Virus record (IMG/VR): IMGVR_UViG_2565956708_000012
Direction: 5' to 3' (one strand)
Source of the DNA: a virus
Taxonomy: Duplodnaviria; Heunggongvirae; Uroviricota; Caudoviricetes
DNA: 4,475 bases
Shown: positions 1 to 4,475 of the stretch, in pieces
How the letters are laid out: every line of letters begins with the position of its first letter
Position numbering within the stretch: the first letter of the stretch is position 1
The notes under the pieces: generated by a model
Told to the model about the DNA's origin: nothing
Databases searched by the model: none
What the model saw: the letters and a program-made list of their open reading frames with translations, nothing else
Translations under genes and position numbers: made by a program

Positions 1-186
1 CTTTACAAAGCGGAGGTAATACACCGTAAGAGCTGGAAAAACCGTGCAGAAGTGGAACTGGCCACACTCACGTGGGTGGACTGGTATAACAATCGACGAT
101 TGCTGGAAAGGCTGGGCCATACTCCTCCGGCAGAAGCAGAAAAAGCTTATTATGCTTCCATCGGAAACGATGATCTGGCAGCCTGA
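1..186 (+). CDS. IS3-family transposase OrfB (integrase/rve domain), C-terminal fragment
   Basis: Open frame from window start to TGA at 184..186, translating as LYKAEVIHRKSWKNRAEVELATLTWVDWYNNRRLLERLGHTPPAEAEKAYYASIGNDDLAA. The WxxWYNxxRxHxxLGxxPPAE motif is a typical C-terminal signature of IS3-family OrfB. Confidence 0.85.
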   Translation, partial: LYKAEVIHRKSWKNRAEVELATLTWVDWYNNRRLLERLGHTPPAEAEKAYYASIGNDDLAA

Positions 187-228
187 GTTCACAGATAAAA
201 CACTCTCCAGGAAACCCGGGGCGGTTCA
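1..228 (+). mobile_element. IS3-family insertion sequence (IS629/IS1203-like), right end, 5'-truncated by window edge
   Basis: Frame-1 translation of 1..186 gives an IS3-family OrfB C-terminus, and the element ends at ...CCCGGGGCGGTTCA (228). The last 25 bp (204..228) are the inverted complement of 4382..4406, matching 23/25. The IS629 name is from memory, not a search. Confidence 0.85.
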
Positions 229-462
229 GAGTAGCTTACGAAGCTTACCATCAGCGGCAACCATGTTCATATGAACACAGTTGAATTTGCTAATCTGCTT
301 CATGAGTTTTGTTTGCTGCGTTGACCAGCTCATTCCGAGGTTTTCAACGATTGGCTTCATCGCAACATATGCAACTCCGGCAGCCATGGCGGTGATAATT
401 TGCTGACCGTTGAATGGCACGTAAGAGGTGTTCACTGCTTCTAAAATTGCTATACTATTCAT
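226..462 (-). pseudogene. ant: Antirepressor (Ant/AntA-like) N-terminal fragment, 3'-truncated by the IS insertion
   Basis: ATG at 462..460 sits 9 nt after a GGAG (complement of 473..476). The 78 native codons ([44 protein letters not shown]...) resemble an AntA-type antirepressor N-terminus. The frame ends in a TGA formed by the IS terminus (complement of 226..228), and Ant proteins are normally several-fold longer. The 528 GTG start in the ORF track is an unsupported upstream extension. Confidence 0.55.
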
Positions 463-545
463 GTTGGTTTTTCTCCACGGATTTACCGACAACCGAAGCC
501 CTGACTGTTCCAGCAGTTGGGGCTTCACTGTTTTGATTTCTTTGC
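463..545 (+). ncRNA. Putative sar-like antisense RNA covering the ant ribosome-binding site
   Basis: Extended -10 TGcTATACT at 448..456 on the + strand predicts a start near 463. The transcript would be complementary to the ant SD and start region and end at the 495..526 hairpin plus T-rich tract. This is inferred from sequence and the P22 sar paradigm only. Confidence 0.25.
495..545 (+). terminator. Hairpin with downstream T-rich tract (intrinsic terminator candidate, + strand)
   Basis: A 13-bp stem (495..507 pairing with 514..526, two G-U wobbles, loop ttccag) is followed by actgTTTTgaTTTcTTT at 527..545. The T tract exists only in the + orientation. Confidence 0.35.
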
Positions 546-694
546 CGCATCAAGCATCACTTCTGAAAACGTGCGCTTGCCACTGAATACTCTTTCTCTT
601 CTCAATTTTTCGTTCGTGCCAAATGATTCGCCATGAACAAAATTTGGTCTTAAAATGGTAATCGCAATCTCTTTGACTACTGCATCCAAGCGAA

Positions 695-847
695 TCACAC
701 CGTTACCCCCTCTCTCTTCAGGCTGTCTATCAGGCGCTTGATAACCTCTGAGTTAAACGACCTGCACTCTTCCTTTGCCCTGCTACCGATAGCATCCTTT
801 AACGACTGCGGCATCCTTACCAAAATCTTACTTATTTCTTTCTCCAT
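695..847 (-). CDS. arc: Arc-like ribbon-helix-helix transcriptional repressor (50 aa)
   Basis: ATG at 847..845 follows GGAGGG with a 5-nt spacer. The product MEKEISKILVRMPQSLKDAIGSRAKEECRSFNSEVIKRLIDSLKREGVTV fits the Arc/MetJ RHH pattern (basic beta-strand xVRMPxxL, then RSxNSE helix) and P22 Arc length. It lies upstream of and co-oriented with the ant fragment. The 883 start in the ORF track is an unsupported extension. Confidence 0.7.
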   Translation of the reverse strand: MEKEISKILVRMPQSLKDAIGSRAKEECRSFNSEVIKRLIDSLKREGVTV

Positions 848-961
848 GTTACCCTCCACGCAAACAACTCTTTTCGAATACAAAAGATAGCAAAGTGAGT
901 ATATCTAGTCAAAATTTTTTTGCATACACTTTGCTATCAAATTGAATACCAAAGGTGTTAT
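848..961. promoter_or_regulatory. Divergent promoter/operator region between the arc-like and mnt-like genes
   Basis: 114-bp intergenic region. On the minus strand, a candidate -35 TTGACT (912..907) and -10 TATCTT (889..884) with a 17-bp spacer face the arc-like gene. On the plus strand, TTGCAT (920..925) is a possible -35, but the matching -10 is unclear. The region contains the inverted repeat listed next. Confidence 0.45.
886..938. promoter_or_regulatory. Perfect 12-bp inverted repeat GATAGCAAAGTG ... CACTTTGCTATC (candidate RHH operator half-sites)
   Basis: 886..897 and 927..938 are exact reverse complements, with centres about 41 bp apart. The left copy overlaps the predicted -10 of the minus-strand promoter. 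Confidence 0.5.
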
Positions 962-1210
962 ATGGCAAAGGGTGTGTCAATTTCTCCAACTACGGTAAGA
1001 ATCCCTGAATCTTTACGCGAGGCTCTTGCTGTCAGAGCATCAAAAAATGGTCGCTCTGTTAACTCCGAGATCGTCATGATTTTGCAAGCCGCGATTGATG
1101 AAGATAGGTCGCCAAAGTCAGTTGAGTCATTTGCTCAGCAAGAAGCTGATAAATTCAAAGAGGCGCTACTTGAGACGCTAAAGACCATGTATGCTAAGGA
1201 TGAAAAATAA
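962..1210 (+). CDS. mnt: Mnt-like ribbon-helix-helix repressor (82 aa)
   Basis: ATG at 962 is preceded by AAAGG. The product MAKGVSISPTTVRIPESLREALAVRASKNGRSVNSEIVMILQAAID... has an N-terminal RHH (GRSVNSE motif) and a C-terminal helical tail ending ...LETLKTMYAKDEK, the same size and architecture as P22 Mnt as I recall it. It is divergent from arc. The 920 TTG start in the ORF track is an unsupported extension. Confidence 0.6.
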   Translation: MAKGVSISPTTVRIPESLREALAVRASKNGRSVNSEIVMILQAAIDEDRSPKSVESFAQQEADKFKEALLETLKTMYAKDEK

Positions 1211-1746
1211 TGCTGCACACAATTCATTTCTTATGCCCTGTTAACACTGCCACTGTTGGGCAACTTCAGAACCACTGTCTCACCGCATTATCTCAAGGCG
1301 CAACTGAATTAAATATCCATATATCAAGTCAGGGAGGGGAAACTGCTGCTGGCTTTACTGCGTATAACTTTCTTAAGTCACTCCCTGTTACCGTTAGAAC
1401 TCACAACATAAGCAATGTTGAATCCATAGCTAATATCGTTTTCCTGGCTGGCTCAGAACGTTTCGCAAACCCATTATCAAGATTCCTGTTACATCCTCTA
1501 TTATGGTGCTTTGCCTCCCCAGCCGCCGACCATGCCAGATTGAGAGAGTACGGGAAATGCCTCGATAACGATCTTGATCGCTTCGTTGAGACGTTCAATA
1601 TCGACATCGGAACCCATATTAGGTGGGCATCCCTGATAGCAGACTCGACCATTTTGGATGCTAACAAGGCTCTTGAGCATGGCATAATTAATTCCATAAA
1701 AACTGCAAGGCTGGCATCCAATCAGGCAAACTGGTGGGTTGTTTGA
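1210..1746 (+). CDS. ClpP-fold (peptidase S14-like) serine protease homologue, 178 aa
   Basis: The start overlaps the upstream stop (TAATG at 1208..1212). By eye the translation aligns with E. coli ClpP: NIHISSQGGETAAGFTAY vs YINSPGGVITAGMSIYD, SNVESIANIVFLAG vs GQAASMGAFLLTAG, LLHPL vs MIHQP, and LEHGIINSI vs VEYGLVDSIL. Candidate Ser/His/Asp triad positions are occupied. It lacks the ClpP N-terminal segment. Confidence 0.6.
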   Translation: MLHTIHFLCPVNTATVGQLQNHCLTALSQGATELNIHISSQGGETAAGFTAYNFLKSLPVTVRTHNISNVESIANIVFLAGSERFANPLSRFLLHPLLWCFASPAADHARLREYGKCLDNDLDRFVETFNIDIGTHIRWASLIADSTILDANKALEHGIINSIKTARLASNQANWWVV

Positions 1747-1777
1747 TGGGTAAATCATGATTACTCCTTATAAAAAA

Positions 1778-1796
1778 CCCACCTGACGGTGGGTTT
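1778..1796. terminator. Bidirectional intrinsic terminator between convergent genes
   Basis: aaaaaaCCCACCtgacGGTGGGttt: a 6-bp GC-rich stem (1778..1783 with 1788..1793) and 4-nt loop, flanked by an A tract upstream and a T tract downstream. It sits between the ClpP-like stop (1746) and the YafO-like stop (1795..1797). Confidence 0.6.
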
Positions 1797-2244
1797 AGTC
1801 AAACATAGTGTTTCTAAAGTCTCTCGCATACCCTGCTAACACTCTCATTCTATTATGATTGTTAGCAGACATGTGAGCTACAGGATGAAAAAGAGCAATC
1901 AATGAATACCTGTTCTCATCAAAAAGATTTTGTGCATAAACGAGAGCGGTATTGGATGTTTTATGCCACTGCAACTTTTGCGGTGTGCTGATATCTGTGC
2001 CATTTTTTATTGGCTCAAATTTATTTTCACCAATTGCTAAATGAAGGTGCATAAGGCCTGCATCTTCAATATCAGGAGGTCGATGATAAGAGGTGTCTCT
2101 GCCAAAATAGCTGGGCAACGTTCCCGTAGACTTGTAGATGATAAAATCATCTACAAGTGTTTGTTTTAAATCAGGAAACTCAACAAAAACCGGGGAGAAA
2201 AAATAGTCAAAACTATCCTGATTATATTCCACGGTTACTTGCAT
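1795..2244 (-). CDS. YafO-family toxin (ribosome-dependent mRNA interferase family), 149 aa
   Basis: ATG at 2244..2242 follows GAGG with a 6-nt spacer. The translation aligns with E. coli YafO as I recall it: DFIIYKSTGTLPSYFGRDTSY vs DFISYKRDGVLPDIFGRDALY, HLHLAIGEN vs HIHLANEN, ALVYAQNLFDENRYSLIALFHP vs HLVYCQGAFDEQAWLLIAILKP, and a C-terminal NNHNRMR...ARDFR vs DNNQMHK...AEAFR. Confidence 0.7.
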   Translation of the reverse strand: MQVTVEYNQDSFDYFFSPVFVEFPDLKQTLVDDFIIYKSTGTLPSYFGRDTSYHRPPDIEDAGLMHLHLAIGENKFEPIKNGTDISTPQKLQWHKTSNTALVYAQNLFDENRYSLIALFHPVAHMSANNHNRMRVLAGYARDFRNTMFD

Positions 2245-2252
2245 GTTTTACC

Positions 2253-2819
2253 TCAGTGGAAGTTACCAGAGTGAAACACACGAGTCCCGTGCTCAGCAAG
2301 CGCACGCAAACCAGCCATATCTACGGAACTATCAAAAACAACCGGAACACATGAGCGTTGTTTAATAAGACTATTCAGGTTGGTTACGGCAGATCTGGCA
2401 TCAGCAACAACGATATAGATATCTCTTGCGATCTCTTTAAAATCAGCAGAAGCTTCTTTGAATACCGATTTCATTGCCCCTTCAAGTCCTCTCAATTGAT
2501 GCTCTATCAATCGAGACTTTTCTGGTTCAATGATAGACAACACATTGTCTACATTCTCATCGGTAGCGTTTGCAAGAACACGATAAGCGTATTTCAGCAT
2601 TCGAGACAATTCTTTAATCGAAGACACCGCCTCATGAAGCTCATCATTAGCCCGTTCACTGCTGAATGAGGATTGATGGTAAGCGTGCTGAACGTTATCA
2701 GTAACAACCACCTCACAACTGAACGCAGAAGCTTGCTGTAATAGCAAACCTATTGCGACTCCAGCTTTGGCAGCGTTCAAGCTAAACATTTCATCAATCC
2801 CATTAGTCTCATTGCTCAT
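2253..2819 (-). CDS. Hypothetical protein (188 aa), upstream operon partner of the YafO-family toxin; putative non-canonical antitoxin or regulator
   Basis: ATG at 2819..2817 is preceded by AGGAGG with a 5-nt spacer. The stop at 2255..2253 lies 8 bp before the YafO-like ATG. I recognise no family. The TTG start at 2849 in the ORF track is less likely than the RBS-supported ATG. Confidence 0.55.
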   Translation of the reverse strand: MSNETNGIDEMFSLNAAKAGVAIGLLLQQASAFSCEVVVTDNVQHAYHQSSFSSERANDELHEAVSSIKELSRMLKYAYRVLANATDENVDNVLSIIEPEKSRLIEHQLRGLEGAMKSVFKEASADFKEIARDIYIVVADARSAVTNLNSLIKQRSCVPVVFDSSVDMAGLRALAEHGTRVFHSGNFH

Positions 2820-2886
2820 ACAAACCTCCTTCTTATCGGAGATTATCAATAGCTATGCATCCATTGAATACACGCTATGCGCAATA

Positions 2887-2915
2887 AGTTTACGTCACGT
2901 GATATCATTATGCAA
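2887..2915 (-). promoter_or_regulatory. Candidate sigma70 promoter for the partner/YafO operon, with a palindrome in the spacer
   Basis: On the minus strand, -35 TTGCAT (2915..2910), a 17-bp spacer, and -10 TAAACT (2892..2887). The spacer contains the palindrome TCACGTGA (2895..2902) overlapping GATATC (2901..2906). Confidence 0.35.
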
Positions 2916-2994
2916 CCACCGTTCTATCACCGACTAACTTTACTCCCACTCCTATACATCATCTGGTATCCTGCGCAAAACTAAGGAGGTTGGT

Positions 2995-3345
2995 GTGAAT
3001 GCTCAGTCTGTCATCATGGTTTTCCTTGGGCTGATTGTCGCAAAACTATATCCAGACTGGTGGAAAGGGGCATTAGCTACTGTCGCCATCTATTTGCTTT
3101 TATCCATCGTTAAGCGATCACTCGCTGAGACCGTAAATCAAGCAAAACGTTTCTCATTTAAGAGTTTAATAAACTATGTTACTGGGCTTATTTTTTGCCT
3201 TTCAATTCTGATCGCTTCGGCTTTTTTGCCCGTATCAATAGCTAATTTTTTTGGCGCACCATATGAGGTAGGTTATCTATTCTCTGTTTCCTGTCTTGCC
3301 ATTGCTCTTCTTTACCTGTGGACGAGATCAAAGAATAAAAATTAG
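2995..3345 (+). CDS. Small integral membrane protein, 116 aa, about four predicted transmembrane helices
   Basis: GTG start at 2995 is preceded by a strong AAGGAGG (2983..2989) with a 5-nt spacer. The translation has four hydrophobic stretches (about residues 5-19, 25-39, 58-78, 92-109) separated by short charged loops, with a basic C-terminus. The gene is AT-rich relative to the flanks and divergent from the partner/YafO operon. Confidence 0.6.
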   Translation: MNAQSVIMVFLGLIVAKLYPDWWKGALATVAIYLLLSIVKRSLAETVNQAKRFSFKSLINYVTGLIFCLSILIASAFLPVSIANFFGAPYEVGYLFSVSCLAIALLYLWTRSKNKN

Positions 3346-3362
3346 CCATCCGTGGCTGCCAG

Positions 3363-4381
3363 TTATTGAGCTTCTTTTTGTGATGCCTGTGCGACTCTGG
3401 TGAGCGATTGTGTGACCGTACTGATCGCTCTGTCATATGCTGTGCTACCTTTTGGCGTATTTGCCAGACGTAACAAGGCATTTCGTATAACAGGGCTTTC
3501 GTATGCCTTCGCAGCTCCTCCTACGACACCAGCAGCAGGAACAACAAACGCAGCCGTTTTTAGCATCCCCGCTAATACTGCTGCGTTTATGATGCCACCA
3601 CCAACTAACAATCCATAAAGCTGCTGACCATTTAAGTTTTGAACGTTCGCTTTTGCCGCGTGTCTTGTATCGTTGAGGTATTTAATAACGCCGTCCAGTT
3701 CCTTTCCATGTACGCCTTTAAAGAAAGTTGCTGATTGCTTCCTGTTCCGGTGTAACGCATTAATAAACTTTTCAACACTAATATTTCCAGACGGATCAGT
3801 CGCCTTATCTACAGCATTCTGAACTATGGCTGCTCGTGCGTTTTGCCTACCATTGTCATCCAGAAGCCTGTAAAGCTGAGAACGTTCTGATGGGTTTTGG
3901 CTAAAAACGAGTTTTGTTACATCCTCAGGTGTAGCCTTGCCGCTGGCTATTGCCTTTTGAACGCGCGTTCTTCCCATCATGTCATTGAATCTAGCCCATG
4001 AGCGATCAACCCTAGACATATTGGCAGCTTCTTCTGAGCCTAGTTTTTGGGATACTGCTTTTTTCATATCCGCTGTATATGCCTTGTAGACAATATCGCT
4101 GGCTTTCTGGAGCGTGTCTTTATCAACAGTCTCGTTTGAATTCATGAACCGCTTTCGAAGGTCAGTTCTGTTTTCTCTCGCCAGACGCAGGTCATTGGGT
4201 CCGCTGGTGATATCGTCTTTAAATTGCTGCAAGACTTTTACCGCGGCTCTATCCTGAGATTTGCCCGGGCGGCTTAACACGGCAATCTGATTGTCGATAG
4301 CTTTTACCGTGTTTGAGAGATCGACAGGGGTATCCCCCATAGCGTCAATTATGCGGTTATATCGCTTTCCTGCTGCCTCAA
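3363..4381 (-). pseudogene. Large protein, 5'-truncated by IS insertion; possibly a phage DNA-ejection/internal protein (gp16-like by synteny)
   Basis: The minus-strand frame is open from the TAA stop (complement of 3363..3365) through the IS junction at 4381/4382 and on to a stop inside the IS. The first ATG (4340) has no SD. The product has a glycine-rich hydrophobic segment (LLVGGGIINAAVLAGMLKTAAFVVPAAGVVGGAAKA). The gp16-like call rests only on its position relative to mnt. Confidence 0.4.
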
Positions 4382-4475
4382 TGAACCGCCCCGGGAATCC
4401 TGGAGACTAAACTTCCTGAGAAAGAGGTAAACAGGATGACTAAAAATACTCGTTTTTCCCCCGAAGTCCGTCAAC
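4382..4475 (+). mobile_element. IS3-family insertion sequence (IS629/IS1203-like), left end, truncated by window edge
   Basis: Terminus TGAACCGCCCCGGGAATCCTGGAGA (4382..4406) is the inverted repeat of 204..228. It is followed by an RBS (GAGG) and the orfA start. It has the same orientation as the copy at 1..228. Confidence 0.85.
4436..4475 (+). CDS. IS3-family transposase OrfA, N-terminal fragment (MTKNTRFSPEVRQ...)
   Basis: ATG at 4436 is 7 nt after AGAGG. The N-terminus MTKNTRFSPEVRQ is the characteristic start of IS3-family OrfA (helix-turn-helix protein) of the IS629 group, from memory. Confidence 0.8.
   Translation, partial: MTKNTRFSPEVRQ

Follow-up and report, generated by a model that had tools for sequence, protein, structure and literature searches.

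Probable dead remnant of a P22 gp16-type DNA ejection gene split by IS629 in an Escherichia coli prophage

Introduction

The window, which is the whole 4,475-nucleotide stretch of DNA analysed here, ends on the right with a junction between phage DNA and an insertion sequence (IS). The minus-strand frame of a large truncated gene stays open across this junction. The question is whether the portion of the gene left beside the IS could still be expressed or is a dead remnant. An earlier note on this DNA, made from the letters alone, left both options standing and made expression dependent on an outward-reading IS promoter together with an alternative start. The answer requires the identity of the gene, the nature of the junction and an account of the signals from which the remnant could be transcribed and translated.

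Structure and source of the window

The window is composed of three parts: the end of an IS3-family element (1..228), phage-type DNA (229..4381) and the start of an IS copy (4382..4475). The boundary between the phage DNA and the right-hand IS is 4382/4381. The features that bear on the truncated gene are the following.

3363..4340, minus strand: 325-residue ORF that begins at an internal Met346, ends at the native stop and represents the C-terminal half of a DNA ejection protein of the P22 gp16 family
3501..3620, minus strand: Gly/Ala-rich hydrophobic segment LYGLLVGGGIINAAVLAGMLKTAAFVVPAAGVVGGAAKAY, residues 586-625 of the intact protein
4341..4381, minus strand: native gp16 codons 332-345 before the first ATG, containing no ATG, GTG or TTG
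4379..4381, minus strand: copy of the 3-bp target-site duplication next to the remnant, reading TTG on the minus and CAA on the plus strand
4407..4409, minus strand: in-frame TAG inside the IS, closing the gp16 frame 8 codons past the junction
4382..4475, plus strand: left end of IS629 (IS3 family), equal to bases 1-94 of the full copy in the related genome L013
1..228, plus strand: right end of a second, identically oriented IS629 copy, equal to the last 228 bases of the full copy

The window is the exact reverse complement of positions 5988-10462 of locus L015 (scaffold KI538675.1, assembly GCA_000494955.1), where it is flanked on both sides by runs of N that lie within the IS copies. This scaffold was located through the truncated Ant product of 78 residues, which is unique. 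The window is a single contig of a draft scaffold, broken at two collapsed IS629 repeats; since the break falls within the repeat, only part of the IS is present at the right-hand end. Both bounding copies point the same way, and the 4.15-kb segment could thus be lost by recombination between them. When the window was compared by megablast with 5,426 complete E. coli genomes, positions 227..4385 were found as an uninterrupted block of 100% identity in many strains (S88, APEC O1 and others). The exact window junctions had no match in the same 5,426 genomes, and the junction in the truncated gene, at gene nucleotide 995, was seen only in the source scaffold.

The truncated gene

The uninterrupted gene in S88 encodes a 670-residue 'P22-gp16 family phage DNA ejection protein' (WP_000868966.1) and lies downstream of the gp7 and gp20 homologues. 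The remnant shows 100% identity with this protein over residues 331-670 (346-670 when counted from the ATG at 4340), and its DNA is also 100% identical to the intact allele. The ATG at 4340 corresponds to Met346 of the 670-residue allele. The estimate of about 340 remaining codons made in the earlier note agrees well with the 339 native codons found (residues 332-670); the missing N-terminus, defined by the comparison with S88, comprises codons 1-332, which are separated from the remnant by the IS. The same note had reasoned that an intact homologue starting at the 4340 ATG would place the IS upstream of a complete gene. None of the uninterrupted homologues that were compared begins there.

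The assignment to the gp16 family is established by several comparisons. The remnant matches PHROG 770, 'DNA transfer protein', with an E-value of 4.9e-98, the match covering positions 325-667 of the 668 in the profile. In BLASTP against P22 gp16, the intact allele shows 30% identity (E 1e-53). Full-length homologues were found in 60 phage records, the closest being that of phage N7, where the gene is one CDS of 668 amino acids. In the precomputed Pfam assignments of the sequence collection, PF26808 is weakly assigned to the remnant and clearly to the N-terminal half; a search of gp16 against the local Pfam, NCBIfam and PADLOC libraries gave no match. The gene order, gp7 - Inj_translocase (gp20) - gp16 followed by the Arc-family repressors (arc and mnt-like), ant and sar, is found in L001, L013 and L015.

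The E. coli allele shares with P22 gene 16 its place after genes 7 and 20 and before immI. The two proteins also have in common a C-terminal YES..RN.LLRLANT motif and a hydrophobic Gly/Ala-rich segment. The glycine-rich membrane segment proposed in the earlier note is supported by hydropathy, with 19-residue Kyte-Doolittle means of up to 1.86. P22 gp16, at 609 amino acids, is 61 residues shorter than the intact E. coli allele, and its internal Met294 aligns with Met346.

P22 gp16 is packaged in the virion and is required for DNA entry across the cytoplasmic membrane (bioRxiv 10.64898/2026.09.03.749273; PMC10461980). It forms the cytoplasmic-membrane section of the injection channel, acts in trans, and is membrane-associated without a strongly predicted transmembrane helix; its N-terminal residues 1-205 have been modelled against the gp20 plinth (bioRxiv 10.64898/2026.09.03.749273). 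The substitutions G532W and P546S, which allow escape from SieA, lie in the C-terminal region of P22 gp16 (PMC10461980). G532 and P546 align with G583 and K606 of the E. coli protein, beside and inside the Gly/Ala-rich segment, respectively. In the window, the N-terminal half, including the part that corresponds to the region modelled on the plinth, lies beyond the IS. A complete polypeptide of about 600-670 amino acids is not encoded here, since only the C-terminal 339 residues (332-670) are contiguous, and the remnant is a fragment of a gp16 family member rather than a functional member.

The insertion element and the junction

Comparison of the sequences assigns the inserted element to IS629. 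The full copy in L013 is 1310 bp long and its ends are identical to window positions 4382-4475 and 1-228; it is 99.6% identical over 795 bp to the RefSeq 'IS3-like element IS629 family transposase'. Identical copies elsewhere carry the annotation 'programmed frameshift' and an AL1L pseudoknot. The terminal inverted repeats are imperfect and have TG...CA ends, with 23 of the first 25 positions matching. The left inverted repeat (IRL) begins with TGAACCGCCCCGGG at 4382, and the ATG of orfA is at 4436; the second copy ends with GGCGGTTCA at 228. The element at the right-hand end lies antiparallel to gene 16, with the IRL abutting the remnant.

In the uninterrupted S88 sequence, identity with the phage part of the window ends at the junction, the exact point being blurred by four shared bases, TGAA. 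The other half of the gene is present in the same scaffold. Gp16 codons 1-332 lie just across the right-hand IS, preceded by gp20 and gp7. The N-terminal side ends with AAATTCATTG (TTCATTG directly before the IS) and the C-terminal side begins, directly after the IS, with TTGAGGCAG (TTGAGG). The trinucleotide TTG is single in the intact S88 gene and is duplicated around the IS in L015. Duplications of 3 bp were seen both here and at an independent IS629 insertion, in L011, where the duplicated bases are AAC. The TTG duplication is a transposition signature and therefore indicates a simple insertion. Together with the presence of the N-terminal half across the IS, it establishes that the gene was split at this point and that the IS did not insert upstream of an intact gene.

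The breaking of E. coli prophage genes by IS629 (= IS1203v) is known, with the same element and the same outcome as in the window. In such cases the label given by PGAP, the NCBI annotation pipeline, is 'injection protein, incomplete, missing N-terminus', and it annotates the equivalent remnants in related genomes as pseudogenes. In gene 16 of relatives of this prophage, IS629 is found at five further positions, none of which is the junction of the window (nt 995).

The open frame across the junction

Translation of the minus strand from 4475 to 3363 reproduced the open frame described in the earlier note: no stop occurs between the TAG inside the IS (4409..4407) and the stop at 3365..3363. 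The ATG at 4340 is preceded by 22 codons of this frame, 8 derived from the IS and 14 native to gp16, which read TCT CCA GGA TTC CCG GGG CGG TTC ATT GAG GCA GCA GGA AAG CGA TAT AAC CGC ATA ATT GAC GCT. None of the 22 is ATG, GTG or TTG, and the ATG at 4340 is the first canonical start. A fusion protein beginning inside the IS is ruled out, the frame having a TAG 8 codons in and no ATG, GTG or TTG before 4340.

The native codons 332-345 are open because they are coding sequence by descent, and the chance that 8 random codons contain no stop is about 0.68. The other two minus-strand frames over the junction are open for 30 codons and for at least 31, both longer than the gp16 frame. The openness across the junction is thus real but does not exceed chance, and it carries no signal.

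Expression signals of the remnant

The ATG at 4340 had been described as lacking an SD sequence, and the calculation is in accord: its duplex with the anti-SD has an energy of +0.7 kcal/mol, weaker than at 84% of arbitrary positions, and nine other starts in the window have energies from -3.9 to -12.7 kcal/mol. The ATG lies 66 nt downstream of the in-frame TAG and has no upstream cistron for translational coupling. Initiation without an SD does happen in E. coli, at low efficiency.

Met346 is invariant in seven homologues of 27-72% identity. In S88, N7 and P22, however, the equivalent Met has no SD before it. For this reason the conservation is attributed to the residue and not to a start, and the idea of a conserved site of internal translation initiation was rejected.

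Two regions were searched by consensus scans, which miss weak or non-sigma-70 promoters: the minus strand from 4340 to 4475, and both strands of the complete IS629 copy. Neither contained a sigma-70-like site. By eye, one candidate was noticed below the scan threshold, a TTGACG (5/6) at 4474..4469 on the minus strand, separated by a 17-nt spacer from a poor -10 sequence, GAGTAT (3/6); it might act as a weak antisense promoter. Hybrid promoters of the IS3 family, as in IS911 and IS2, have their outward -35 in the right inverted repeat, IRR (PMC9330008). In the window it is the IRL, not the IRR, that faces the remnant, unlike in four related strains (L003, L006, L010 and L002), where the IRR does so. 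An outward IS promoter for the remnant was accordingly discarded, none being predicted and the wrong IS end facing the gene. Read-through of an antiterminated late-operon transcript, from the upstream half of gp16 across the IS on prophage induction, is conceivable.

The two elements on which expression was said to depend, an outward IS promoter and a usable start, therefore find no support, and of the two options given in the earlier note the dead remnant is the better one. With the absence of predicted expression signals established, the remnant is presumably not expressed.

Recurrence of the 325-residue reading frame

Gene calls for an identical 325-residue product occur in 88 or more blocks of the public collection, and a 95%-identical version exists as well. 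The lesions behind these calls vary from case to case. IS629 junctions are found at gene nucleotides 849, 867/868, 872, 960 and 995, the last being that of the window. Insertions at 867/868 occur in both orientations, one of them with an AAC duplication. In total, the nine loci concerned (L002, L003, L006-L008, L010-L012, L015) have six or more distinct IS629 junctions between nucleotides 849 and 995. Several of the junctions adjoin motifs of the TGAA(C)/GGAACC type, which resemble IS ends. In related prophages as many as four copies of IS629 occur within 17 kb, and the DNA between copies has undergone inversions and deletions.

A second kind of lesion is found at a run of seven T residues in the hairpin GAGTTCC-T7-GGAAC, at about nucleotides 850-875 of gene 16 (about 8275-8300 in L001). 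T6 and T8 variants of this run split gene 16 in independent assemblies (L004, L005, L009, L022-L027), including cases of a 93%-identical allele without an IS. These variants could be due to slipped-strand mutation or to sequencing error.

A look-up by the 325-residue product selects any lesion that lies just upstream of Met346, and the clustering of the lesions is for this reason largely a matter of ascertainment. Among 408 complete genomes carrying the gene, nine have it broken within the 351-bp stretch. A hot spot for IS629 in gene 16 was considered and is not established, given that the product look-up favours nucleotides 849-995 and that only these nine of the 408 genomes are broken there.

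PHROG 29117 is a profile of 327 positions with the label 'head morphogenesis', and it begins exactly at Met346. It might be taken to represent a natural stand-alone gene. This was rejected, as N7 has the single 668-residue CDS and every inspected call of the 325-residue product lies downstream of a lesion. No stand-alone gene for 325 residues was found at high identity in phage records, and no diverged stand-alone C-terminal family was found. The only stand-alone form with full coverage is the 95%-identical cluster of 325 residues; the others are either proteins of greater length or incomplete calls, for the most part on short contigs. PHROG 29117 probably derives from prophage copies shortened by lesions. 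The case shows why gene callers, and apparently also PHROG 29117, hold a spurious 325-residue 'protein' that is the tail of gene 16.

Proposed history and alternative readings

The most coherent history begins with an intact gp16-type gene of 670 codons in a P22-like prophage of an E. coli strain, encoding what would be the cytoplasmic-membrane part of the DNA-injection channel. A 1310-bp IS629 would have transposed into codon 332/333, antiparallel to the gene, and generated the 3-bp TTG duplication. That the frame continues for 8 codons into the IS before a stop would be mere coincidence. Left with no promoter of its own, no outward promoter from the IS, no fusion partner and no ribosome-binding site at the only canonical start, the C-terminal portion would have become an untranslated pseudogene fragment that has so far accumulated no mutations. 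The 100% DNA identity with the intact allele implies that the insertion is recent, and it leaves no divergence in which selection could be tested. That gp16 was split by IS629 and that the remnant is a dead, recent pseudogene fragment is thus very probable.

Three other readings were weighed against this one. A low level of the C-terminal half might be made from Met346, by read-through or from a weak antisense IS promoter, and act as a decoy-type exclusion factor, a membrane-associating fragment that disturbs channel assembly by superinfecting P22-like phages. The whole of this argument starts from the SieA-escape positions, which lie next to and inside the retained hydrophobic segment. Action of gp16 in trans, its unaided association with the cytoplasmic membrane, the invariance of Met346 and the recurrence of the same ORF in at least 88 blocks by way of different lesions would all suit this reading. 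The recurrence, however, is accounted for by ascertainment and by hitch-hiking of the fragment with immI and toxin genes next to it; only nine of the 408 complete gene-carrying genomes are broken in the stretch, and a diverged C-terminal family is lacking. The start has no SD (+0.7 kcal/mol) and no predicted promoter, the SD is not conserved before the Met in N7 and P22, and the region modelled to contact gp20 is absent from the product. Production of such a fragment as an exclusion factor is accordingly very unlikely. Even more doubtful is the stronger form, in which the Met346 product in lysogens is a dominant-negative decoy and disruption of gene 16 upstream of Met346 has been selected rather than being accidental. 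If true, it would be a new route to superinfection exclusion.

The split gene might instead be in a reversible off-state, from which precise excision of IS629 over the TTG duplication would restore gene 16. Both halves and a perfect 3-bp duplication are there, the remnant matches the intact allele, and precise excision of IS629 promoted by IEE (IS-excision enhancer protein) is documented (PMC9330008). Yet the prophage has at least one further IS629 lesion, which cuts ant at codon 78, and the region past the ant-cutting IS is rearranged in related strains, so that restoration of gene 16 would not restore a functional phage. Moreover, no complete tailspike gene was called in L015, whose N gaps could conceal one. 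An off-state of this kind is highly improbable. It is hardly credible that the junction is an artefact of assembly at a contig end in a repeated IS. The contig is indeed bounded by IS repeats, the IS interiors of the scaffold are N gaps and the exact junction is missing from the 5,426 complete genomes. Nevertheless, 94 bp separate the junction from the end of the contig, the next contig of the scaffold contains the reciprocal junction, where the matching TTG occurs at exactly the adjacent gene nucleotide, and finished genomes have analogous IS629 insertions in the same gene.

Insertion followed by loss of expression, the preferred reading, makes the locus a case already known in kind, an ordinary IS629-split pseudogene in a decaying P22-like prophage. 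It is a textbook example of a prophage decaying through IS insertion and is in itself of little importance. Its value is for annotation: 3363..4381 should be recorded as a pseudogene fragment, and the ORF from Met346 should not be counted as a gene.

The neighbouring immI region

The phage segment of the window is the immI region of a P22-like prophage. In addition to the large ORF, the minus strand carries a 188-residue ORF with a YafO-family toxin gene, an Arc repressor gene, a small ORF and the start of ant. The plus strand carries a hydrophobic ORF of 116 residues, the gene of a Mnt-like repressor of the Arc family, a ClpP-like ORF and the sar antisense RNA. The following features were delimited.

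226-462, minus strand: ant (antirepressor), cut after codon 78 of 300 by the second IS629 (junction 228/229)
463-529, plus strand: homologue of the sar antisense RNA (Rfam RF00262, 83.9 bits against a gathering score of 43)
962-1746, plus strand: Mnt-like Arc-family repressor gene and ClpP-like ORF of 178 residues (PF00574, E 2e-11)
1795-2849, minus strand: YafO-family toxin gene (PF13957, E 3e-22) and 188-residue ORF (phrog_8416)
2995-3345, plus strand: strongly hydrophobic ORF of 116 residues with a near-perfect SD, AAGGAGG, convergent with gene 16

As in P22 immI, the sar homologue is located on the strand opposite to ant, immediately upstream of its start. The stop codon of the truncated ant, TGA, is supplied by the terminal TCA of the second IS629 copy. 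The same ant lesion is present in 33 blocks of the collection, some of which have an intact gene 16 (L013, L016), and it is therefore older than the insertion in gene 16.

In P22, the place of the 116-residue ORF is taken by sieA. Similarity to P22 SieA was not detectable (E 0.29), and searches of Pfam, PHROGs, NCBIfam and PADLOC produced no match; the ORF may encode an unrelated membrane or exclusion protein of the prophage.

The YafO-family toxin gene is located 9 bp downstream of the 188-residue ORF, and the pair looks like a moron of the toxin-antitoxin type. The pair may explain the retention of the segment in many degraded prophages.

The ClpP-like ORF is an unusual partner for an immI repressor. 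It overlaps the stop of the Mnt-like repressor gene by TAATG, and the two genes therefore appear to be co-transcribed.
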